Shown here in pieces: positions 42,481-57,590 of a stretch of 64,000 nt of DNA; within the stretch, counting starts at the first letter, position 1, and each line of letters opens with the position of its first letter. Source of the stretch: an uncultured Chlamydiae bacterium (GTDB lineage: Bacteria > Chlamydiota > Chlamydiia > Chlamydiales > JAJFMA01). The position numbers and the translations under genes are program-made. Under the pieces are notes generated by a model, which was not told the origin of the DNA, did not search any database, and worked only from the letters and a program-made list of their open reading frames with translations. The stretch covers positions 3,200,001 through 3,264,000 of the forward strand of contig CAVQMM010000001.1 in the NCBI GenBank assembly GCA_963713615.1, written 5' to 3'.

Positions 42481-43296
42481 GTGGCATTAACATCAGTACG
42501 GCCGATTGGTCTGGATGCTTGTTGGCAAACGACCGATCTAGTCAAAAGCATAGAGAAATGTTCAAAGGAAGGGGGAGTGGCCTCGCGTTTGACCGCAGGT
42601 GGTTTGACAGGTCTAGTAGCTCTTACCGCTTTAGCTAATGCGGTCATGCATTTCACCAGGGCTCTCGTTGAGCTTCCGATGATTGTTGTGATTACTGTTC
42701 GAAGGTTGGTTGGTATGAGTACTGTCGCGCAAAGCGACTACAATCTAAAGAGGGCTGCTTTGCATGTTGTCCGGGCCTTAGCCTTTGCTGCAGAGGGGGC
42801 CATTTGTGGCACGATTGGTATTCCTTTTGCTGTTGTCAAGCCTTCGGTGATTGTTTCTTTGCATCGCGATTTGCGTTTGGATGTTTCTTGGGAAGCTTCA
42901 GTTTTCTCGCAAAGATGGATAGGGCGTATAGGACAATGCTGCGATATGGCACAAAGTTACCTAAAGGGTGCTTGGGAACGGTTGTATAAGGCTGACCCAG
43001 TCTTTACAGTCAAAGTAGTGGGAGCCCTGGAGGGCGTCCTGGCGGTTGCTGGTATCGTGTGGATCATGTCTCGACCTGCACCGGAGATCTGTCCAAAACC
43101 GGAGGTCTGTCCTGCACCAGAGGTCGTTGATAAGCCTCGTAAATATAAGGATATGGAGATTTACGACTGCGTATGGGTCCCATATACAGGCTTCAGATCG
43201 GTAGAAGAGTTAAAATGGAAGGAGCAGCAGCACACCCTGACAGCGACGCCTAAGCCAACGGGGAGGATATGGTTATGGGGTGGTTTTGATGATTGA
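42481..43296 (+). CDS. Hypothetical membrane protein, paralog of 53427-54293
   Basis: Shares GLDACW..DLV, RLTAGGLTGLVAL, QSDY, CGTIGIPFAV.KPS.IV.LHRDL with the 53427 ORF; GTG start with GGGAG RBS. Confidence 0.7.
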   Translation: MALTSVRPIGLDACWQTTDLVKSIEKCSKEGGVASRLTAGGLTGLVALTALANAVMHFTRALVELPMIVVITVRRLVGMSTVAQSDYNLKRAALHVVRALAFAAEGAICGTIGIPFAVVKPSVIVSLHRDLRLDVSWEASVFSQRWIGRIGQCCDMAQSYLKGAWERLYKADPVFTVKVVGALEGVLAVAGIVWIMSRPAPEICPKPEVCPAPEVVDKPRKYKDMEIYDCVWVPYTGFRSVEELKWKEQQHTLTATPKPTGRIWLWGGFDD

Positions 43297-43390
43297 CCCA
43301 TTTTCGCTAAGAAAACAATGAAATATTTGACAATTCGGAGTCTGTGGTTATCCTTGTGCAGGAAAATCACAGATTGTAGGAGCACCGGCG

Positions 43391-43843
43391 ATGTCACAGT
43401 CATTAGCTTGCATGTTGGTACATGTCATTTTTAGCACGAAGAACCGTCAGCCCTTTATTCAACAGGGAACCATGCCCGAGCTTTTTGCCTATATGGCAGG
43501 AACAGCCAGGGGATGTGCTTCCCATGTATACGAGATTGGTGGCGTTGAGGATCATGTTCACGTGTTGCTTACGCTGCCAAGAACGTTGGCTTTATGTAAA
43601 TTGGTCGAAGAACTCAAGAAGTCATCTTCAAAATGGATAAAGACCAAAGGCCATATTTATGCCGATTTCTGTTGGCAACATGGATATGGAGGGTTTTCAG
43701 TAAGTCAGTCGGAAGTGGAAAAGGTTCGGAGATACATTAGAAATCAGCGTCAACATCACGCCAAAATGACCTTTCAGGACGAATATCGCTGTTTTTTAAA
43801 TCGATACAATGTTGCCTTTGATGAGCGCTATGTGTGGGATTGA
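43391..43843 (+). CDS. tnpA: IS200/IS605-type Y1 HUH transposase
   Basis: HVIFSTKNR, GGVEDHVH (HUH), WQHGYGGFSVS, catalytic YIRNQ. Confidence 0.92.
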   Translation: MSQSLACMLVHVIFSTKNRQPFIQQGTMPELFAYMAGTARGCASHVYEIGGVEDHVHVLLTLPRTLALCKLVEELKKSSSKWIKTKGHIYADFCWQHGYGGFSVSQSEVEKVRRYIRNQRQHHAKMTFQDEYRCFLNRYNVAFDERYVWD

Positions 43844-46800
43844 CCCGTTGTGGCATATACCATGGCGGTGCCATGGCCTGTTGCAATGCCTGCCCTTCGG
43901 GCTTTGGATGGATGACGGTGTGTGTTACAACAATATTGTGTATGGATGCCAGACAATCATCTGCATGGGCATTAACGGCATCCGGGATAATCCATGGACA
44001 TGTTTCGACGATAGTTTCGAATCGAGCGTTTATTAAATAATCTATTTTCAGAGACGCTACAATCATTTCTAAGCCCGAAGGGCAGACATTGCAACAGGCC
44101 ATGGCACCGCCATGGTATATGCAGCAACACGATTTCGCAGCCTGTAGGGCTGCCACAAGACGTCAGGTTGCACACACCGTATATACATGCGTTTTATAGC
44201 AGTCTTTCAGACTGCGTCATCATTTTTTGGCATATACCATGGCGATGCCATGGCCTGTTGCAATGCCTGCCCTTCGGGCTTAGGATGGGAGACGGTGTGT
44301 GTTACAACAATATTGTGTATGGACGCCAGACAATCATCTGCGTGGCTGTTAACCGAGTCCAGGGTGCTACACGGACATAATTCGTTCATAGGATGGGTGG
44401 TGTTGTGTGATACAACAATATTTCGTGTGTATGTCCGAACAATCATCTGCGTGGTTGTTAACAGAATCCAGGATGATCCACGGACAGATTTCAACGATAA
44501 TTTTGAATCGAACATTGATAATTTCGAATCGGACGTCTATTAATCGACCTTTTGTCAGATATGCTGTCACCATTTCTATGCCCGAAGGGCAGGCATTGCA
44601 ACAGGCCATGGCATCGCCATGGTATATGCAGCAATACGATACCGCAGTCTGAAAGACTGCCACAAGACGTCAGGTTGCACACACCGTATATACATGCGTT
44701 TTATAGCAGTCTTTCAGACTGCGAAATCTATCCTGGCATATACCATGGCGATGCCATGGCCTGTTGCAATGTCTGCCCTTCGGGCTTAGGATGGGTGATG
44801 GTGTGTGTTACAACAATATTGTGTATGGACGCCAGACAATCATCTGCATGGTCATTAACGGCATCCGGCATAATTCATGGACATGATTCAACGATAATTT
44901 CTAATCGAGCGTTTATTAAATAATCTATTTTCAGAGACGCTACAATCATTTCTAAGCCCGAAGGGCAGATATTGCAACAGGCCATGGCATCGCCATGGTA
45001 TATGCAGCAACACGATACCGCAGTCTGACAGACTGCCACAAGACGTCAGGTTGCACACACCGTATATACATGCGTTTTATAGCAGTCTTTCAGACTGCGT
45101 CATCATTTTTTGGCATATACCATGGCGATGCCATGGCCTGTTGCAATGTCTGCCCTTCGGGCTTAGGATGGGAGACGGTGTGTGTTGCAGCAATATTGTG
45201 TGTGTATGTCCGAGCAATCATCTGCGTGGCTGTTAACCGAGTCCAGGGTGCTACACGGACATAATTCGTTCATAGGATGGGTGATGGTTTGTGTTACAAC
45301 AATATTGCGTGTGGGTATCCGAACAATCGTCTGCGTGGTTGTTAACAGAATCCAGGATAATACACGGACATGATTTCAACGATAATTTTGAATCGAATAT
45401 GGATAATTTCGAATCGGACGTCTATTAATCGACCTTTTGTCAGATATGCTGTCATCATTTCTAAGCCCGAAGGGCAGACATTGCAACAGGCCATGGCACC
45501 GCCATGGTATATGCCAGGAATGGATTTCGCAGCCTGTAGGGCTGCCACAAGACGCATGCACAAATGAAGCGCTCACAAATAAACATATTCTGGCAGTCTT
45601 TCAGACTGCGTCATCATGTTTTGGCATATACCATGGCGATGCCATGGCCTGTTGCAATGTCTGCCCTTCGGGCTTAGGATGGGTGATGGTTTGTGTTACA
45701 ACAATATTGCGTGTGGGTATCCGAACAATCGTCTGCGTGGTTGTTAACAGAATCCAGGATAATACACGGACATAATTCGTTCATAGGATGGGTGACGGTT
45801 TGTGTTACAACAATATTGCGTGTGGATGTCCGAACAATCATCTGCGTTGCTGTTAACCGACTCCAGGATGACCCACAGAAATGGTTCAACAATAATTGTT
45901 TGAATCGAACATTGTTAATTTCGAATCGGGCATTTACCAAACAACTTCTTGTCAAATATGCTGTCATCATTTCTAAGCCCGAAGGGCAGACATTGCAACA
46001 GGCCATGGCACCGCCATGGTATATGCCAGGAATGGATTTCGCAGCCTGTAGGGCTGCCACAAGACGCATGCATAAATGAAGCGCCCACAAATAAACATAT
46101 TCTGGCAGTCTTTCAGACTGCGTCATCATGTTTTGGCCGATACCATGGCCATGCCATGGCCTGTTGCAATGTCTGCCCTTCGGGCTTTGGATGGGTGGCT
46201 GTGTATGTTACAACAATATTGCATGTGTATGTCCGAGCAATCATCTGCGTGACTGTTAGCCAAATCCAGGATGATCCACGGACATGATTCGGTTATAGGA
46301 TCGGTGGTGTTGTGTGATACAACAATATTGCATGTGGATGTCCGAACAATCATCTGCGTTGCTGTTAACCGAATCCAGGATAATACACGGACATAATTCG
46401 TTCATAGGATGGGTGATGGTTTGTGTTACAACAATATTGCGTGTGGATGTCCGAACAATCATCTGCGTTGCTGTTAACAGAATCCAGGATAATACACGGA
46501 CATGATTTCAACGATAATTTTGAATCGAATATGGATAATTTCAATCGGACGTCTATTAATCGACCTTTTGTCAGATATGCTGTCATCATTTCTAAGCCCG
46601 ACATCCCGCTAGAATTTTTCAAGATTTTTCGTAGCTTTCAGGCGATTTTTCGATGCCAATTCCTTCGGTTTTGAAACTTTTAATTATTTTCTAATTTTGC
46701 TAAATTTATAGAGCCGAAGTAGAGTAGCCGTGCTCCTTTCAACTGCGAAGGGACACGGTGAATTTACTTAGGAAGGTTGTATACAACTCCTATGGGGTTG

Positions 46801-46905
46801 CCGAAGCAGAGTAGCCGTGCTCCTTTTCTGCTCAGCTAACATCGCCGAATTTGCTGACCTTGTTCATTCAGGCCAAACAGAACAAAGCCCGTTTGCTAAA
46901 CTAAC

Positions 46906-48102
46906 TCAGTCTTCCTTCTGACGGTAATCCCTGTCATGTATGAGTATCGACCATATTACTCTTATCATATGACGGGCAAATGCTCGTACTGCTTGGTTAT
47001 GTTTTTTTCCCTCTGCTCTCTTCTTCTTGTAGTACTGTGCAGCCTCATCACATAGTTGTATATGTCGAGCAGCTCCGGTCATCATAGCTCCCTTTCCCCT
47101 CCAGTTAATATTTCGAGGCGATCGAGACCCCTCATATTGGCCAGAACTCTTGTTCAGAATTCCTATTCCCAAGTAGAGCGCTAGACTAGCTTCCGACTTA
47201 AACCGATCGATACTACCAATCTCTCCAGCGAGTTCTGCGGCACAAATGGAACCATATCCAGGAATAGATTCAATCCGAGATGCTATCTTGGATTGTGGGA
47301 TCAAACCCTCTATCAATACCTCCAACTGCGCTATTTCATCTAGCATCTCGAGTAGCCTTCTGACATCTCGTACTATTAATTTTCCTATCCACTCAACCTT
47401 TGAAGAGAACTTAGCCGTCTTTTGCCATTTCTGAATTTCCTCTGCATAAACCTCTCCAACGCCCTTGATTTGCAACAGGCTTCTTTTTTGCATTCGAAGC
47501 AACATGGTCATGTCTTCCTTCGAAGCAAGAAATCGTAGAAACCAAAGATTTGCTGGATTTTTTGTAATAGACAGTAGACCGGGGCAAACAGCCTGTAGAT
47601 CCCCTTGAAGTCGATTTATGATTCTTGTCTTTTCTTTTACCAACTCTCTACGACGCCTTGAAATATGTTTAAGTTGCTCGTTGCATACCGGTGGAGGCTC
47701 TACTTTCTGCAGAATATTTTTTGCCAACGGTAAGGTCTCTTGAACTTGAAACAAGCTAAAAATAGCCCAAGCGTCAATTGGATCTGTTTTGGCTGGACCA
47801 GGAAAAACTTCCTTAAATCTAGCCAATTTCATGTTGTTGACACTATACAAAGAATATCCGTGATCAAGAGCATATCTATCGATGGGTCTAGCATAGCCAT
47901 TAAACCCCTCCATAGCCATGACAACAGGCATGTTATAGGAAATTCTAAGCTTCTCAATTTTCTCAAAAAACTGCTCAATGTCTTCAGAAGTGTGGTTTAG
48001 ATAAAATCCATCGATGCGTTCTCCTGTGGACAAGCCTATGGCTACATAGTGTCGAACGCTACCGATATCTAGACAAATACGAAGTTCGGACTGATTTTGC
48101 AT
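46906..48102 (-). CDS. IS110-family recombinase/transposase
   Basis: DEDD RuvC-like residues (CLDIG, AMEG, KTDPIDA); SIPGYG..AAEL.GEIG.IDRF; catalytic SSG. Confidence 0.93.
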   Translation of the reverse strand: MQNQSELRICLDIGSVRHYVAIGLSTGERIDGFYLNHTSEDIEQFFEKIEKLRISYNMPVVMAMEGFNGYARPIDRYALDHGYSLYSVNNMKLARFKEVFPGPAKTDPIDAWAIFSLFQVQETLPLAKNILQKVEPPPVCNEQLKHISRRRRELVKEKTRIINRLQGDLQAVCPGLLSITKNPANLWFLRFLASKEDMTMLLRMQKRSLLQIKGVGEVYAEEIQKWQKTAKFSSKVEWIGKLIVRDVRRLLEMLDEIAQLEVLIEGLIPQSKIASRIESIPGYGSICAAELAGEIGSIDRFKSEASLALYLGIGILNKSSGQYEGSRSPRNINWRGKGAMMTGAARHIQLCDEAAQYYKKKRAEGKKHNQAVRAFARHMIRVIWSILIHDRDYRQKED

Positions 48103-48139
48103 GATAAATGCCCTGTTAAGTGTTTGTGAGCGTTAAATT

Positions 48140-48353
48140 TCACCCAAATTCCACTTCTACTTACAGAGCCACAATCAGAAGATTGGCACCATCCCGAACG
48201 GAATTATTGGATGATGCAAACGACGAAGGCGGCATATCGGGCCAGGCGAACAAACATTCGCTAAGGGCACACGGCCACACCTTCGTCGGCCAAAATGATA
48301 CCTTAGAGAAATGTTTTTTGTCTTTTCCTATTACCGTCGATAATCGTTTGCAA
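48140..48353 (-). ncRNA. Predicted IS110 bridge RNA
   Basis: Two stem/internal-loop modules carrying guides that match the target (UGCCCUU, GCCCGA) and the donor junction (CGGGAUG, GUAGA). Ends approximate. Confidence 0.8.
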
Positions 48354-49020
48354 AATCCTATGGTAGAAGGGCAGACATTGCAACAGGCCATGGCACCGCC
48401 ATGGTATATGCCAGGAATGGATTTCGCAGTCTGAAGGACTGCAACAAGACGCATGCACAAATGACGCGTCCACAAATAAACATATTCTGGCAGTCTTTCA
48501 GACTGCGTCATCATTTTTTGGCATATACCATGGCGATGCCATGGCCTGTTGCAATGTCTGCCCTTCGGGCTTAGGATGGGAGACGGTGTGTGTTGCAGCA
48601 ATATTGTGTGTGGATGTCCGAGCAATCACCTGCGTGGCTGTTAACCGAGTCCAGGGTGCTACACGGACATAATTCGTTCATAGGATGGGTGATGGTGTGT
48701 GTTACAGCAATATTGCCTGTGGATGTTCGAACAATGATCTGCGTGGTTGTTAGCAGAATCCAGGATAATACACGGACATGATTTCAACGATAATTTTGAA
48801 TCAAACATTGATAATTTCGAATCGGACGTCTATTAATCGACCTTTTGTCAGATATGCTGTCACCATTTCTATGCCCGAAGGGCAGGCATTGCAACAGGCC
48901 ATGGCATCGCCATGGTATATGCCAGGAATGGATTTTGCAGTCTGCAAGACTGCCATAAGGTGTTCTAAACAATCTCTTGTGAATGTCACATAGATTGATT
49001 TCTGGAAGCTCCCCAAAAAA

Positions 49021-49081: not shown

Positions 49082-52000
49082 CTAGCTATTGTTGTTATTA
49101 TTGTTGTTCTTAGGTAGCTGTATGCTCTTACGTTTGTTGTTGGTGTTAGGCTGGTAAACCTTTACGGTGAGAGGCTTGCCTGCATCTTTTAGCTTCCTCA
49201 CCTCAGCTAACGCACTTCTAAATGTACCATCTGCTCCAATACCTTTGGATATGGATTCTAGAACGTCCAGATTCAGAACATACGTCGTAGCTACCCAATC
49301 GCTCTTCTTGTTGGTTGGCTTGTACGTTAGCGTGATATCTTGGAGGCCCCTACCATCTGGGTGGTTAAAGTGGTTCACAATTTTATTATAGAAAAAGGCT
49401 TGAAGAGCTCTAGTATCATAGCCACCTAGAAAATCCACCACTTGTGTCTGAAGATTGCTGATCAGCTCTGCTTGTTGCTTACTAAGTGCTGCTTGAAGTT
49501 TAGCCTTGCTCTCCTCATTAGCATTTGCCAACTGATGCTTAGTCTTTTCAATTTCTTCATTGAGCCGATTCATATCCTCTTCTTGCCGAGCTTTCTCTAA
49601 TTCAAGTTGTGTTGCAACCTTTTTATGCTCTTCAGCACTCATCACAGTAGTTTCAACCTTTGTTGAAAGCTGAGCATTATTTGCCTGCAACTCCTCCAAC
49701 ATAGACTCAAGCTGAGCAATCCTTGCCGTGCGCTCTTCAATGGTTTGTCGTAAGGTATCATTTTCCTTCATGACACTTTTATGTTGGGTCTTGAGGAGTT
49801 CATTTTCCTGCATCAAAGCGCTTATTCTTTCTTGCAGCAGTCGTAGCTCGTCAGCTTGTGTGTTGATGGTTTCTTGCTGGCCAGAAATGGTGATCTCATG
49901 GGTCTGCACGAGATTGTCTCGTTCTTCAGCAAACTGCGTTTGCTCCTGAAGTTTTTTATTGGCCTCTACAATGGTCTGTTGGGCTTTTTCGAAAGCTTCC
50001 GTTTTGGAATTTAACTGTTCCACAACCAACTGATTTTGCTGCGTCAGTTCGCCGTTCAGTTTCTTGGATTCCTTCAACTCCAGCTGAGCTGCGTTGAGCT
50101 CGTTCTGCGCATCGCTACGAGCCTTGTTGACTTGCTCAAGCTCGCTTTGAACGGTTTTCAACTGATCGTTAAGCTCTTTCTGAGCCTCTTCGAATTGCTT
50201 AGCAGCGTCTGTATGACGGCTTTCAGCTTCGTTGAGCTTCTGACGTTCTTTAGTAACATCATTAGTAAGCTGCTGATTATTCTCTTCAAGCTCCTTCTGC
50301 TTCTGCTGAAGCTTGGTGATCTGCTCATCCTTCCACTGCAAGCTTTGCGAGAAACTTGTCAATTGATTGGCATTAGCACTGGCCGCTTGCTGCAGCTGGG
50401 TATATTCCGTTTCTTTTGTCTTGAGCAGCTCTGACGTTTCTGAAAGCTTCTTCTCAAGCTCACTGATGGCATTTAGGTGCTGTTGTTTGGTCTCTTCAAC
50501 CTGCTTGGCACTCACGCCTTCAGCTTCTATCTTATGTTGAAGCTGATTCTGGAGAGTCTCAATCTGTGACTTGGTCTTCTCCGATTCGTTCTTGAGGCTG
50601 TTGACCTCTGCGCGAGTATCGGCAAGCTCTTTAACAATCCTCGACTTGTCCTGCTTTTCCTGCTCTAGCAGCTCGCTAAGCTGGTCTTTCTCATTATTTA
50701 GAGATTCAATCTGATTTTGGATGCCTTGATGCTGTTCTCGAAGTTCAGACAATTGTTTTTCAAGATCCGCTACGCTAGCAAGTGAACTAGCCTTCTCGGT
50801 ATTTACCTCATGGAGTTGATTTGTCAGAGATTTTTCTGTCCCAGCGAGCTTCTCCTCGATCTCTGTTTTTTCACGTTCAAGTGCCTTAAGCTGCTTTTGA
50901 TACTCTTCAACCTCTTTTCTTAACTCAGACATTTTCTCCTTCTTACCACGGAAAGAAAACCCATAATTAATATTCTCTTGCTGATATTTGTCGCGCTCCT
51001 TCTTAAGCTTAAGGATGGTTGATTCACTCTCATTCAGTTTCAGGTTTCGGGCAGAAACTTGGAGATTGAGAATCCCCATTTGTCTTTCAAGCTCCTTGAT
51101 TTGATTTGACGCAGCGTCTTTCTCTCTAGTGACTCTATCAAGTGCTTGTGTCATCTCGTTAAGTGCTTGTGTCATCTCGTTCAGTCTAATTACCTGCTGC
51201 TGATTTTGAGATTGGTTACTTTCCAGACTCTGTATTTGATCGTTCAGTTGTTTTGTTTCTGTTTTTAATGTACTAATCTGGCTGCTTAGTTTGGATTCAT
51301 TTTGTTTTAACACGTATAGTTGAGTTTTCAATGCATTTGATTCATTTTCCAACTTGCTAATTGTGCTAGTCAGATCGTTTATCTGATCGTTTTTATCTTT
51401 CAGAGAGATTTTATTCTGGCCAATGGTCGCCAAATATTTTTCACAAGCTGTAGTAGCCTGCTGGAAATTTGCCTCAGCATCGTTCAGGTCCTTTTGCAGC
51501 TTTTGTAGCGCTTGCTTGTTTTTCTCTAGTTCAGCCTTTAGAACGTTGTTTGTGTTAGAAAGCTCAAAGTTCTTTGGTTGGAGCTGGTTATATTTCAATG
51601 TGATCTGTTCGACGTTTTCCTCGGCTGACATAAGCTTTTCTTTGAGCTTTTGAATGCTAGCAACCAAATCATTATTAGATAGCTGGTTATTAGCAGTATT
51701 CACAACGGATAGTGCTTGATCTAATAATTCCTGAAGTAATTTATTTTGTTTACTAAGTCTTTTAATTTCAAAATATAAGATACTAAACTCGTTAGTGTTA
51801 TCGTCTAAATCTCTGTTATTGTTAACGGTATAGGAGTGTTGCTCAAGCGCTTCTAAGATCGATTGAAAGCAAGAGTTATTTTCTCTGCGGAGGATCACTA
51901 TCAGCCCGGTCAAGAGTGAATTGCCTTTTGCAACATTGGTTTTAAACATTTCCCAGTCTTCTCGAAGTTTTTTAAACTTAAGATTACTAATTGGGAGTTT

Positions 52001-52876
52001 CTGGATGCTATCATCAAGAGTTTGTTCGAGACCTTTTTCGTAGTCATCGTCGTTGTTAAATATTATGTTGTCATTATTATTGTTGTTGTTCAGGTTTTGA
52101 TTTTTAATTATTATGTTATTATTGTTGTTGTTGTTTTTCTGTCTTGAATCATACGCTTTTGGATACTGATTGTCCTGTTCAATGTCACAACTGTCTTCGA
52201 TATATTCATCTTCATCACCAGAACTATGTGCTTTTAGCTCATCAATTTCTCTTTCAAGGTTCTGTTTTTTTACTAGAGCTTCTTTTAAGTTTTTTTGTAG
52301 ATTACTAATGTCATTTTTTTGTTTAGCGCTGAGGTTTTCGTTATTTTTAAGAATATTTGAAAGCTGCGTATTAATATTTTGATTAACCTCTTCAAGGCTG
52401 TAAACGTTCTCTTGCAATAGTTGAATTTGCTTCAAGGAATTATTAAATGCTCCATCGCAGGCTCTAATGTGAAAGGATGCCCAACCTAACCCACTTTCTG
52501 CATCTTTTTGGCTTGGGTCTTCCTGGATGATCTTGTCACGCTCTTTTTTAGAGCGCAGTATGGCGGTCATAATGCTATCGTTCGTGTTCATGAGCTTGAG
52601 TACAGTGACTGTAAAGTCTTTAGTTTGAAATGTGGGTTCCTTAACGTAGTATGGGCCATTATCATTGCCTATAAGCCGTAGGATGTCGAGGCATCGCTCT
52701 ACTTGATGTTCGTTCAACTCTTCTAAGGTCGAAAAATGCTTGAGTTGGGTTATCCGCTCCTCTTTTGAGAGTTCCTGGGCGCTTGGAACCTTTGCACCAA
52801 ACCAACCATTTTTAGACAAAAATCCATATTGTTTACTTTCTATGTCGGTATTAAAGTTAAAAGATGACTTATCCAT
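49082..52876 (-). CDS. 1264-aa coiled-coil protein with poly-Asn tracts
   Basis: Long E/K/Q/L heptad region; poly-N runs; AT-rich 5' half; no Walker motifs. Confidence 0.8.
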   Translation of the reverse strand: MDKSSFNFNTDIESKQYGFLSKNGWFGAKVPSAQELSKEERITQLKHFSTLEELNEHQVERCLDILRLIGNDNGPYYVKEPTFQTKDFTVTVLKLMNTNDSIMTAILRSKKERDKIIQEDPSQKDAESGLGWASFHIRACDGAFNNSLKQIQLLQENVYSLEEVNQNINTQLSNILKNNENLSAKQKNDISNLQKNLKEALVKKQNLEREIDELKAHSSGDEDEYIEDSCDIEQDNQYPKAYDSRQKNNNNNNNIIIKNQNLNNNNNNDNIIFNNDDDYEKGLEQTLDDSIQKLPISNLKFKKLREDWEMFKTNVAKGNSLLTGLIVILRRENNSCFQSILEALEQHSYTVNNNRDLDDNTNEFSILYFEIKRLSKQNKLLQELLDQALSVVNTANNQLSNNDLVASIQKLKEKLMSAEENVEQITLKYNQLQPKNFELSNTNNVLKAELEKNKQALQKLQKDLNDAEANFQQATTACEKYLATIGQNKISLKDKNDQINDLTSTISKLENESNALKTQLYVLKQNESKLSSQISTLKTETKQLNDQIQSLESNQSQNQQQVIRLNEMTQALNEMTQALDRVTREKDAASNQIKELERQMGILNLQVSARNLKLNESESTILKLKKERDKYQQENINYGFSFRGKKEKMSELRKEVEEYQKQLKALEREKTEIEEKLAGTEKSLTNQLHEVNTEKASSLASVADLEKQLSELREQHQGIQNQIESLNNEKDQLSELLEQEKQDKSRIVKELADTRAEVNSLKNESEKTKSQIETLQNQLQHKIEAEGVSAKQVEETKQQHLNAISELEKKLSETSELLKTKETEYTQLQQAASANANQLTSFSQSLQWKDEQITKLQQKQKELEENNQQLTNDVTKERQKLNEAESRHTDAAKQFEEAQKELNDQLKTVQSELEQVNKARSDAQNELNAAQLELKESKKLNGELTQQNQLVVEQLNSKTEAFEKAQQTIVEANKKLQEQTQFAEERDNLVQTHEITISGQQETINTQADELRLLQERISALMQENELLKTQHKSVMKENDTLRQTIEERTARIAQLESMLEELQANNAQLSTKVETTVMSAEEHKKVATQLELEKARQEEDMNRLNEEIEKTKHQLANANEESKAKLQAALSKQQAELISNLQTQVVDFLGGYDTRALQAFFYNKIVNHFNHPDGRGLQDITLTYKPTNKKSDWVATTYVLNLDVLESISKGIGADGTFRSALAEVRKLKDAGKPLTVKVYQPNTNNKRKSIQLPKNNNNNNNS

Positions 52877-53426: not shown

Positions 53427-54293
53427 ATGGTGGCAAATGTAATGGCACCAAGCGGCTTGGATGCTTGCTGGTTCACAAGAGATTTAGTCGATCGTATAGA
53501 TCAATGTGCAAAAGATGGCGGAGCCGTCGCACGGTTAACTGCCGGCGGCTTGACTGGCTTGGTGGCGCTCTCAGACTTAGACAACGCGGGCATTCACCTC
53601 GTTAAGGCGGTAGCCCAATTGCCCTTGGCTGTGCTTGTCACCATTGGTCGGTTGGTCGGTTTGGATGCTGCTAAACAATCCGATTACGACCTAACGAGAG
53701 TGGCGCTCCATGTGACGCGAACCCTAGCTTTTGCTACTGAAGCAGGCGTTTGTGGGACAATAGGCATCCCTTTTGCAGTTGCCAAGCCTTCGGCTATTGT
53801 TGCTTTGCATCGTGACCTAGGTTTGAATGCTACCTGGGAAAATTCGGGGTCTCTTGAAACATGGCGCACTCGTGTAGATGAATATTGCCACATGGCGCAA
53901 GATGGAGTTAAGAAGGCTTGGGGAACCACGCGTGACTTTGGCTCTCTTGTCATTAGCAATAAAAACCCAGCTCTAACGATCAAAGTGATAGGTGCTCTTG
54001 TGGGCACACTAGGTCTTGTGGGTGGAACTGCCTTGGCGTTGTCTTCAACTGGGACGAGTGATGGTGGTCCTAACAACCATGATGTTCCTGATAACGGTGG
54101 TGTCAACAATATCGTTATTGTTGACCCTAACAAAGTTAAACCTAATGACGACAACCAAGATAAAAAGCACAAGGTGACATCGGGTGAGGTGGGGGTGCAT
54201 GCAGTATTAGGCTTGGGTACGGTTGCTGTGGCATATGCAATGGTATATCGTCTTGTCAAGGCTGTGCCTGTTCTTGGTATGGCGCCCGCCTAA
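53427..54293 (+). CDS. Hypothetical membrane protein, paralog of 42481-43296
   Basis: GGAGG RBS; shared N-terminal ~135 aa; divergent C-terminus with an extra hydrophobic segment. Confidence 0.75.
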   Translation: MVANVMAPSGLDACWFTRDLVDRIDQCAKDGGAVARLTAGGLTGLVALSDLDNAGIHLVKAVAQLPLAVLVTIGRLVGLDAAKQSDYDLTRVALHVTRTLAFATEAGVCGTIGIPFAVAKPSAIVALHRDLGLNATWENSGSLETWRTRVDEYCHMAQDGVKKAWGTTRDFGSLVISNKNPALTIKVIGALVGTLGLVGGTALALSSTGTSDGGPNNHDVPDNGGVNNIVIVDPNKVKPNDDNQDKKHKVTSGEVGVHAVLGLGTVAVAYAMVYRLVKAVPVLGMAPA

Positions 54294-56281: not shown

Positions 56282-56566
56282 CTCGGCGCGCAGCGCTTTG
56301 GAGTGCGCGTCGCTCGCGACCGCTTTGGAATTGGGCGAAGCTATAGCCTCACGACCGTCACCCTCCCCACACCCCAAAGGCCTCACAATCGTCACTCGGC
56401 GCGTAGCGCTTTGGAGTGCGCGTCGCTCGCGACCGCTTTGGATTTGGGCGAAGCTATAGCCTCAGGACCGTTACCCTCCTCACCCCCCAAAGCCCTCACA
56501 ATCGTCACTCGGCGCGTAGCGCTTTGGAGTGCGCGTCGCTCGCGATCGCTTTGGATTTGGGCGAAC
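56282..56566 (+). repeat. Three tandem REP units (~113-bp period) on one side of the RAYT
   Basis: ctcggcgcgYagcgctttggagtgcgcgtcgctcgcgaccgctttggaWttgggcgaa at ~56282, 56396, 56508. Confidence 0.9.
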
Positions 56567-56584: not shown

Positions 56585-57115
56585 TTAAAAGTCATCATAA
56601 ACATTTACATTATCTATTTTGAAGCTCTCTACGGTTTTTTGAAAGGCCCTTGAGGCGGTCTTCTGGAACCAATTTGCAGAACACCATGTATATTCAGCGG
56701 CGTTTTCCACGAGTTTATGTCGAACTGGATTTTGCTTAACATAGTTCAAACGCGCCAAATAAGATCGTTCGAAGGTTAGGCGCGTATCCCAGAATTGATG
56801 CCACACCTGACGACCAGGTGTGCCATCCCTTTCGTTAACGATCCTTGCTGTAATGCCGTGTAGCTTATTGATAAATATATTTAGATTTTGTGGATCCTTA
56901 GGAGCACTTGCCACAAAATGATAATGGTTACTAAAGACGGCCCAAGCCTGCAAACTCCAATTAAATTCATTCGCACAAGAGATAAGGTTATTTTGCAGTA
57001 TGGTAAGTCTTTCTGGACATCTAAAATGATGAAGTTTGCGATAGGTACCTGCAGTCACCATGTAGGTTCCTTGATTGGCGGTCCAGTGTGGTGGGCTATG
57101 TGGCCAGTGTTCCAT
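56585..57115 (-). CDS. REP-associated tyrosine transposase (RAYT / TnpA-REP)
   Basis: GTYMVTAGT, WAVFSNHYHF (HUH), VWHQFWD, YVKQNPVRHKLV..Y.W.S; likely start ATG 57115. Confidence 0.9.
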   Translation of the reverse strand: MEHWPHSPPHWTANQGTYMVTAGTYRKLHHFRCPERLTILQNNLISCANEFNWSLQAWAVFSNHYHFVASAPKDPQNLNIFINKLHGITARIVNERDGTPGRQVWHQFWDTRLTFERSYLARLNYVKQNPVRHKLVENAAEYTWCSANWFQKTASRAFQKTVESFKIDNVNVYDDF

Positions 57116-57199: not shown

Positions 57200-57590
57200 T
57201 GGCGCCGAAAGACGATTGTGAGGGGTTTGTGGTGTGAGGGTGGATGTAAGGGTTTGTGGTGTGAGGGGGTGGCGGTCGTGAGGCTATAGGTTCGCCCAAA
57301 TCCAAAGCGGTCGCGAGCGACGCGCACTCCAAAGCGCTGCGCGCCGAAAGACGATTGTGAGGGGTTTGTGGTGTGAGGGGGTGACGGTCGTGAGGCTATA
57401 GGTTCGCCCAAATCCAAAGCGGTCGCGAGCGACGCGCACTCCAAAGCGCTGCGCGCCGAAAGACGATTGTGAGGGGTTTGTGGTGTGAGGGGGTGACGGT
57501 CGTGAGGCTATAGGTTCGCCCAAATCCAAAGCGGTCGCGAGCGACCGCACTCCAAAGCGCTGCGCGCCGAGAGACTATTGTGAGGGCTTC
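57200..57590 (-). repeat. Three tandem REP units plus a partial unit, inverted relative to 56282-56566
   Basis: ttcgcccaaatccaaagcggtcgcgagcgacgcgcactccaaagcgctgcgcgccga at ~57291, 57403, 57515. Confidence 0.9.

Follow-up and report, generated by a model that had tools for sequence, protein, structure and literature searches.

The window analysed here, 64,000 nucleotides from the genome of an uncultured Chlamydiae bacterium (G000; assembly GCA_963713615.1), contains an intact gene, tnpA, for a 150-residue HUH-Y1 transposase (Pfam Y1_Tnp, 84 bits), followed by an array of inverted repeats that is interrupted by one IS110 element (Table 1). There is no tnpB at the locus, as an earlier sequence-only reading had stated: the array lies directly 3′ of the tnpA stop and the ORF upstream has no Pfam match. 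The gene occurs once in the genome, with a distant paralogue (~37–38% identical) at C1:3872948–3873388. Its product narrowly passes the NCBIfam transpos_IS200 model (57.6 bits, cut-off 55) and fails the RAYT profile REP_Tyr NF047646 (22.4 bits, cut-off 80), on which seven homologues score 22.6–26.4 bits; the RAYT motif Y---NP is absent. The signature DHVH / WQ / YIRNQRQHH is invariant and the C-terminal tail conserved in the homologue alignment. This agrees with Table 1 of Quentin, Siguier, Chandler and Fichant (2018, PMC6006769), where subclass 1.2 has DH[IV]H, WQ and Y---Q--HH, ~148 residues with a conserved C-terminal tail, low copy number and distant paralogues, occurs mostly in Cyanobacteria and Bacteroidetes, and has the REP entry "no". 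Judged by its sequence, TnpA belongs neither with the plain IS200 transposases nor with the RAYTs; it carries the subclass 1.2 signature and is assigned to that subclass by its motifs. Its scores on the two models support the earlier view that it is closer to IS200 than to classical RAYTs. Searching the PDB with TnpA gave weak matches to IS608 and ISDra2 (E 0.004–0.04), and the same query found no relative in viral contigs. A promoter-like sequence upstream of the gene (TTGACA-16-TATCCT) was discarded, two such sites being found against 2.1 expected. In an RNA run, two 151-nt contigs at depth 2 span 43380–43652; they may be DNA and are not counted as expression.

Table 1 Features of the tnpA locus (positions in the window)
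Feature	Position	Strand	Remarks
tnpA, HUH-Y1 transposase subclass 1.2, intact	43391–43843	+	motifs DHVH 54–57, WQ 95–96, Y115-Q119-HH122–123
BIME-like head-to-tail array, seven inverted doublets of a three-hairpin repeat	43853–48957
Doublet 1	43853–44153		lacks hairpin P3 on the gene side; 1 B and a short C
Doublet 2	44199–44660		2 B
Doublet 3	44706–45036		1 B and a short C; 94% identical to doublet 1
Doublet 4	45082–45545		2 B; 94–95% to doublets 2, 6, 7
Doublet 5	45593–46057		2 B
Doublet 6	46105–48442		3 B; IS110 interrupts the right-hand repeat in P2
Doublet 7	48490–48953		2 B; outward P3 hairpin at end
Type unit	45465–45545	+	P2 45465–45475, linker ending CAG, P1 45491–45507, ~20-nt spacer, P3 45529–45545
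Type 109-bp B spacer unit	45675–45783	+	13 copies, this array only
IS110 element	46602–48365	-	398-aa recombinase 46906–48102; at core TC of hairpin P2
Predicted bridge RNA of IS110	48148–48289	-	read by eye; layout after PMC11208160

The repeat unit consists of three hairpins in the order P2-P1-P3. P1 (CCATGGC-nnn-GCCATGG) occurs 14 times in the array in strictly alternating orientation, and P2 (GCCC-TTC-GGGC) as 13 intact copies and one split by the IS110. These two palindromes had been noted as module A of the repeat; both are present, but the unit includes a third hairpin, P3 (GCAGYC-n5-GRCTGC, 13 copies), lying in what had been taken for a separate module, D. The grammar is otherwise as described, with seven inverted doublets, 13 B units (mean column identity 88%; numbers per doublet in Table 1), six D junctions of 120–123 nt and one IS110 inside. 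The first repeat does begin 9 nt past the tnpA stop, and the array without the 1764-nt IS110 interior comes to ~3.34 kb, close to the ~3.3 kb given before. The AT-rich linker C has two forms, a short one, in doublets 1 and 3, and a long one. No repeat was detected upstream of tnpA (inverted-repeat score 16, shuffle maximum 23), again as had been claimed. The doublets are 85–95% identical to each other, and an 880-bp block of two doublets is duplicated within the array. B and C show no fold beyond that of shuffles (z +0.8 to +1.05) and were found neither elsewhere in this genome nor in the 300 genomes of the phylum that were scored (one was not scored). The basal pair of P1 is a mismatch at this locus and the gene-side P3 is missing, so that the locus may be decaying.

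That the array is an assembly artefact seems to us a negligible possibility. No read or contig record spans the whole of it, ~3.34 kb being the assembly's length, and one public contig skips 378 nt, perhaps through variation between strains or an artefact of the assembly graph. Against this, the assembly has only 3 contigs, the units differ by 5–15%, and unit-specific pieces recur with 0 differences in contigs from three separate public runs of DNA, among them a 1277-nt piece spanning the IS110–array junction.

The repeat accompanies the gene at other loci also. A three-hairpin unit lies beside the gene on at least one side at 67/86 homologous loci (shuffles, 7/430), on both sides at 30/86 and on neither at 19/86, and inverted repeats bracket the gene above the shuffle maximum at 78 of the 92 testable loci, which include the present gene twice as a negative. 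Many of the loci with the unit are in PVC-superphylum genomes, and ~6800 stored stretches of subclass 1.2 are estimated in the species collection. The usual layout is mirrored, each side of the gene having a unit whose P3 is nearest to it. The present locus lacks the upstream copy and has an expanded downstream one, a layout shared with locus L011 (genome G006, protein 36% identical), which is a second gene-headed, downstream-only array, of 9 units. Beside subclass 1.2 genes in many phyla, the distances between P2, P1 and P3 are fixed and P1 has a conserved AG foot on its 5′ side: CT directly 3′ of P1 (the AG foot on the other strand) is present in 84 of 97 units, and the foot tetramers follow NNAG, with GTAG the commonest (18 units) and ACAG here. 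The more similar the proteins, the more similar are their repeats (rho 0.39, 0/2000 permutations, 58 loci), by a Mantel test that covers CT-foot units only and is uncorrected for kinship and GC content. As expected from the sequence-only reading, this repeat is shared by close homologues: 5/40 relatives have the A motif, each with a homologue 57–63% identical, and in 0/34 of those without a close homologue, by a pattern that was built after the homologue flanks had been seen and misses G012 (58% homologue). The distant paralogue has its own, different three-hairpin repeat, in 26 copies; one genome would hold natural orthogonal transposase-repeat pairs.

As far as sequence can tell, a subclass published as repeat-less is paired with a conserved three-hairpin repeat in many phyla, and this co-varying partner would give it a defined enzyme-substrate pair. 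The automatic REP search of PMC6006769 targeted GT[AG]G-footed REPs. In the published literature we found no link between subclass 1.2 and a three-hairpin repeat, and no report of cleavage or binding by any protein of the subclass. Relatives G019 and G029 hold free doublets of the form A> x <A, with P3 outward. At free doublets, inverted likeness extends into the flanks beyond P3 with 9–12/12 matches in 5/8 (cross-locus mean 4.25, maximum 11), suggestive of arm copying; we do not use it as evidence because some flanks are common to several loci.

Genome-wide there are 244 A-like copies, 230 outside the array; on C1, 4/241 fall inside long ORFs, against a coverage of 73%. The sequence-only reading, which proposed such a count, saw in TnpA a domesticated REP amplifier. 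The dispersed copies exist, but 211 of the 230 adjoin the arms of a TIR-bounded MITE and five an IS110 lying within a copy of that kind (together 216/230), and of the remaining 14 copies 12 are variants of the MITE type whose arms are truncated. Of 106 TIR pairs of the MITE, 43 have an exact 4-bp target duplication (mean of shuffles 6.8, maximum 16) and 63 have no exact one; the MITE also forms five tandem arrays far from tnpA. Genome G002 has the same TIR with the repeat absent, and no tnpA match was found there; the MITEs of G002 and G006 have just the TIR in common with this one. In G311, where 20 doublets of a different three-hairpin repeat were fetched, 11 are enclosed by paired TIR-like ends that are shared. 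An autonomous partner with the same ends was found neither in this genome nor in five relatives or 5 viral and 36 metagenome hits. No empty insertion site was found, so that no cut point is mapped; a 211-bp candidate for an empty MITE, at C1:249166, has arisen by internal deletion, still contains part of A and gives no insertion site. It is likely that this unrelated MITE carried most of the 230 dispersed copies, and high repeat counts need not reflect an adjacent HUH enzyme. Since 216/230 copies are linked to the MITE or IS110, only one free doublet was found in this genome and B and C are confined to the array genome-wide, the term domesticated genome-wide amplifier is not borne out, whereas REPtron-like holds. 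Domestication in the strict sense is likewise not supported: no flanking genes are shared among 10 loci, the relatives being distant ones, and the presence of the gene within the genus is patchy.

With REPtrons and BIMEs (RAYT, TnpA-REP; PMC8266576, PMC3116915), the locus shares a single HUH-Y1 gene beside alternating extragenic palindromes, inverted doublets, tandem clusters, a foot that ends in AG on the 5′ side of the main hairpin and targeting by IS110. It differs from them in its protein (no Y---NP, RAYT model failed), in its unit of ~80–90 nt with three hairpins (REPs have 20–50 nt and one), in the foot, ACAG instead of GT[AG]G, and in being a one-sided array with spacers of 160–400 nt. 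Subclass 1.2 is matched in motifs, length (~150 residues), C-terminal tail, low copy number, distant paralogues and lack of tnpB, but not in its tabulated want of REPs. The HUH/Y1 core, the narrow pass of transpos_IS200 and, as in IS200, a solo tnpA recall IS200/IS605 subclass 1.1 (IS200, IS608, ISDra2); here, however, the gene is single, with no near-identical copies, no left-end repeat and no tnpB, and the subclass 1.2 family has mirrored three-hairpin ends, the extra QxxHH and the C-terminal tail. TIRtrons (Di Nocera 2013, PMC3733652) also have a tyrosine transposase gene, TIRYT, which is enclosed by long inverted repeats; some of these are double palindromes, and they form dimers or clusters. 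Quentin's scheme places all 26 TIRYTs in class 2 (20 in 2.1, 4 in 2.2, 2 in 2.5), though some overlap with subclass 1.2 is conceivable.

We consider it somewhat more probable than not that this is a REPtron-like locus of subclass 1.2, comprising an intact HUH transposase gene, an array that it likely nicks and copies dispersed by a MITE. TnpA likely binds and nicks the three-hairpin repeat as single-stranded DNA. That the unit is instead a structured RNA or an mRNA-stabilising element, with an incidental link to tnpA, is very improbable. Rfam Acido-Lenti-1 (RF01687), listed as an RNA with no assigned function and classed as a probable RNA by Weinberg 2010, does match P1-P2 type units above its cut-off of 37 bits at five places around the homologue L008 and in 2/5 other genomes (G311, G313), including the homologous locus of G311. 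The variant here falls below the model: the array gives only weak, chance-level Rfam hits and none to Acido-Lenti-1, the best score in this genome is 18.6 bits and none passes in L021–L040. The units, moreover, are paired in inverted orientation, on both strands, about a gene for a single-stranded DNA nuclease whose sequence they track. Spread of the repeat genome-wide by a domesticated IS200-like TnpA itself, in the way proposed for RAYTs and REPINs, is improbable; the number of copies, their avoidance of long ORFs and the free P3-outward doublets fit it, but the MITE arms or IS110 beside nearly all outside copies, the local B and C and the lack of synteny do not.

A decaying IS200-like element, whose ends are the mirrored repeats, whose gene-less derivatives are the free doublets and whose array arose by host slippage or unequal recombination without TnpA, is less readily dismissed, though we think it unlikely. 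The want of common flanking genes and the patchy distribution agree with it, as do two high-scoring gene copies 2.1 kb apart in G311, a pair at 75% in G012, the 26/58 loci with just two units and the MITE arrays that arose far from tnpA. Tandem duplication needs no transposase, which counts against an array built by TnpA. On the other side are the single gene copy here, paralogues only 37–41% identical in four genomes, the mirror-image ends of the family, unlike the asymmetric small hairpins that end IS200/IS605 elements (PMC8266576), and arrays that begin at the gene's stop codon in two lineages (here and L011).

For the REPtron-like locus that we prefer, the ancestral element would have been repeat>tnpA<repeat, from which this locus presumably lost the upstream repeat as well as the P3 on the gene side. 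A doublet with captured spacer DNA (B, C) may then have multiplied locally through repeated rounds of tandem duplication and exchange between units, the duplications likely begun by TnpA nicks on lagging-strand hairpins and completed by host replication or recombination. A D-type array junction would once have been acquired by the unrelated TIR MITE, which a putative DDE transposase likely spread to >100 sites, the abundant hairpins being hit later by IS110 (in P2) and by a second MITE (in P1). More tentatively, and to our minds doubtful as a whole, subclass 1.2 could be a third widespread HUH-hairpin class whose three-hairpin single-stranded substrate is the true Acido-Lenti-1, its enzyme capturing adjacent DNA between two repeats and amplifying doublets into ordered arrays from its own stop codon, and an evolutionary bridge from IS200 to RAYTs. 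PMC8266576 regards both the origin of REP/BIME arrays and the derivation of RAYTs from IS200 transposases as open.

The IS110 recombinase has DEDD and Transposase_20 domains, and all nine copies of the element in the genome lie in P2, at CCCT-TC-GGGC. In the predicted bridge RNA, the target guides TGCCCTT and GGCCCGA match P2, at the sites of all nine copies, while both ends of the element itself are matched by the donor guides CGGGATG and GTAGA; in the computed fold, the guides are base-paired to one another, and there is no Rfam match. One fixed repeat site, a 2-nt core and guides in the left end resemble IS621-type IS110 (Durrant 2024, PMC11208160), but here the core is TC (non-CT) and the hairpin targeted, P2, belongs to a subclass 1.2 repeat. 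The locus supplies an IS110 with a predicted bridge RNA directed at the repeat, with a non-CT core.

The array begins 9 bases past the tnpA stop codon and ends at position 48957 of the window and, as the sequence-only reading described, alternates copies of the repeat unit (A) with one to three copies of the 109-bp spacer unit B. Hairpin P1 (CCATGGC-nnn-GCCATGG) occurs 14 times in alternating orientation, and P2 is intact in 13 copies and interrupted in one by an IS110. These are the two palindromes already assigned to A, but the unit has a third hairpin, P3 (13 copies), that had been placed in D, the junction between doublets (inverted pairs). The 13 B copies are distributed 1,2,1,2,2,3,2 over the doublets with a mean column identity of 88%; neither B nor the linker C folds above shuffled sequences, and neither was found elsewhere in the genome under study (G000) or in the 300 phylum genomes scored. 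The doublets are mutually 85–95% alike (94% for 1 and 3, 94–95% for 2, 4 and 7) and the junctions split into two groups, D1–D3 and D4–D6, a pattern suggesting duplication of blocks accompanied by exchange. No repeat was found upstream of tnpA, again as proposed. Unit-specific pieces of the array are matched exactly by contigs of three public DNA runs, none of which covers the whole array; one contig spans the IS110–array junction and one omits 378 nt.

Against the NCBIfam models, TnpA scores 57.6 bits for IS200 (cut-off 55) and 22.4 bits for RAYT (cut-off 80), in agreement with its suggested closeness to IS200, and seven homologues score similarly, six above the IS200 cut-off and one below. 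Its DHVH, WQ and YIRNQRQHH are motifs of subclass 1.2, a TnpA-Y1 transposase group that the accessible text of Quentin et al. 2018 (PMC6006769) enters as REP 'no' and describes without IS properties; the automatic REP search there targeted REPs with a GT[AG]G foot. G000 has one copy of the gene and a second subclass 1.2 gene, the paralogue, which is 38% identical.

We sampled the paralogue, 20 loci of relatives and 80 named loci, the latter being the 80 best among at least 588 confirmed ones. An inverted repeat brackets the gene, above the shuffle maximum, at 78 of 92 testable loci (G000 tnpA counted twice). A structural search for P3-(12–34 nt)-P1-(6–20 nt)-P2 covered the 86 loci, other than G000 tnpA, that have the signature and at least 150 nt of flank. 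The three-hairpin unit flanks the gene in 67 of them, on both sides in 30, compared with 7 of 430 shuffles, with spacings peaking at 22 nt (P3–P1) and 12 nt (P1–P2). CT lies immediately 3' of P1, an AG foot on the opposite strand, in 84 of 97 units, and the commonest foot tetramer is GTAG (18 units), a few mis-called units being included. The more identical the proteins, the more alike their repeats tend to be (rho 0.39 over 58 loci, not corrected for kinship). The paralogue has its own, different three-hairpin repeat on both flanks, with 26 copies genome-wide, and so provides a natural orthogonality control. Homologous loci had been singled out as the place to look for the same palindromes: the A motif occurs in 5 of 40 relatives, each with a 57–63% homologue, and in 0 of 34 without a close homologue, using a pattern made after viewing the homologue flanks which misses G012, a genome whose repeat is a variant.

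Two units per locus are commonest (26 of 58 loci). The largest other array, at L011 in genome G006, has nine units, downstream only and beginning at the stop codon; its repeat differs from A and its protein is at 36%. The G000 locus adds a one-sided, gene-headed array, of which L011 is a second example, together with counts for the carriage of the repeat by a MITE and the parasites of P1 and P2. Free doublets with outward P3 are present in genomes G019 and G029; at loci L129, L131, L132, L133 and L139 the outer flanks of free doublets are mutually inverted for 9–12 of 12 nt past P3. Our literature search, with most subscription papers outside its reach, found no paper tying subclass 1.2 to repeats, nor was such a link found in the accessible parts of works including Bertels 2017 (PMC5581495), Weinberg 2010 (PMC2864571), bioRxiv 2026.10.21.760802 and Di Nocera 2013 (PMC3733652; text without Fig. 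9 and Additional file 5).

Matches to Rfam Acido-Lenti-1 exceed the cut-off around locus L008 and, of five other genomes, in two; none does so in the array, G000 or loci L021–L040. Genome G311 (L156–L175) holds at least 148 matches, many being inverted doublets with the inner unit repeated one to three times, and many lying within TIR-like ends inserted in CCCWGGG hairpins. It has six full-length subclass 1.2-like genes, and of 20 retrieved doublets of a three-hairpin repeat other than A, 11 lie between paired shared TIR-like ends.

G000 contains 244 A-like copies (≤14 mismatches in 53), with 4 of the 241 on its main contig (C1) inside long ORFs. Outside the array, 211 of 230 adjoin arms of a 430-bp element with GAGGTAATTGCA inverted-repeat ends; the other 19 comprise 5 beside an IS110, 12 in a MITE-type variant with cut-off arms and 2 in one doublet. 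An exact 4-bp duplication flanks 43 of 106 TIR pairs holding A (shuffled mean 6.8). The MITE-borne doublet has the D orientation and is 73–80% like the array's D. This MITE exceeds 100 copies and carries repeats from three HUH systems, other members bearing those of the paralogue or a class 2 RAYT. It sits in short GGAC/GTCC-rich patches and forms tandem arrays of up to nine, which arose far from tnpA. In genome G002 the TIR is present without A, and no tnpA match was found. No transposase for the MITE was found in G000, 5 relatives, or 5 viral and 36 metagenome hits.

As MITE cargo, the A copies are no sign of TnpA activity through their number, and the earlier proposal that TnpA amplifies the repeat genome-wide is improbable. 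We rather favour, with some confidence, a REPtron-like locus. The data establish the anatomy of the array, the conservation of the unit in the family, carriage by the MITE and the IS110 site; the steps that follow are proposed. By analogy to TnpA-REP, in the accessible part of PMC8266576, TnpA would recognise and nick the repeat as ssDNA; the upstream unit would have been lost at this locus and the remainder amplified in tandem in place. RAYT systems are known to have tandem REPIN clusters (PMC3116915, in part), which do not necessarily depend on the enzyme. A decaying IS-like element whose array is host-driven is conceivable, if rather unlikely. The flanks of 10 loci share no common gene, which speaks against the domestication once suggested, at least in a strict sense, though the relatives are distant.

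P1 and P2 both carry parasites. A second MITE, with CAT...ATG ends, occupies the middle of P1 and is flanked by an 11-bp duplication at 71 of 93 pairs; we take it to be IS4-like, and further IS elements within some copies are presumably IS66-like and IS1634-like. The IS110 enters P2 at CCCT-TC-GGGC in 9 of 9 copies, and its left end, read by eye, has stretches matching target and donor, ordered as in bridge RNA. IS110 insertion into REPs was already known (PMC11208160, accessible part).

Coordinates of features in the window and on the main contig (C1) of G000
Feature	Location	Strand	Remarks
tnpA	window 43391-43843		150 aa, Pfam Y1_Tnp
Class 2 RAYT	window 56585-57115	-	176 aa, NF047646 83.9 bits (cut-off 80)
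RAYT tandem repeats, both flanks	window 56290-56560, 57200-57590		
Coiled-coil-like ORF, immediately past array	window 49082-52876	-	1264 aa, no Pfam match
Two similar hydrophobic ORFs, either side of region	window 42481-43296, 53427-54293	+	no Pfam match
Sole free doublet	C1:3596927-3597190		2 A-like copies
GAGGTAATTGCA-ended MITE, examples	C1:636275-636706, 2273505-2277245		
CAT...ATG MITE, example	C1:278175-278485		300-310 bp
Paralogue with flanking repeats	C1:3872500-3873700		gene at 3872948-3873388
Two more long Y1_Tnp genes	C1:1466375-1466704, 1581528-1581851		330-340 aa open frames
IS200-like gene	C1:1042783		

The two hydrophobic ORFs are apparently paralogues, and the RAYT flank motif has ~57 matches genome-wide.
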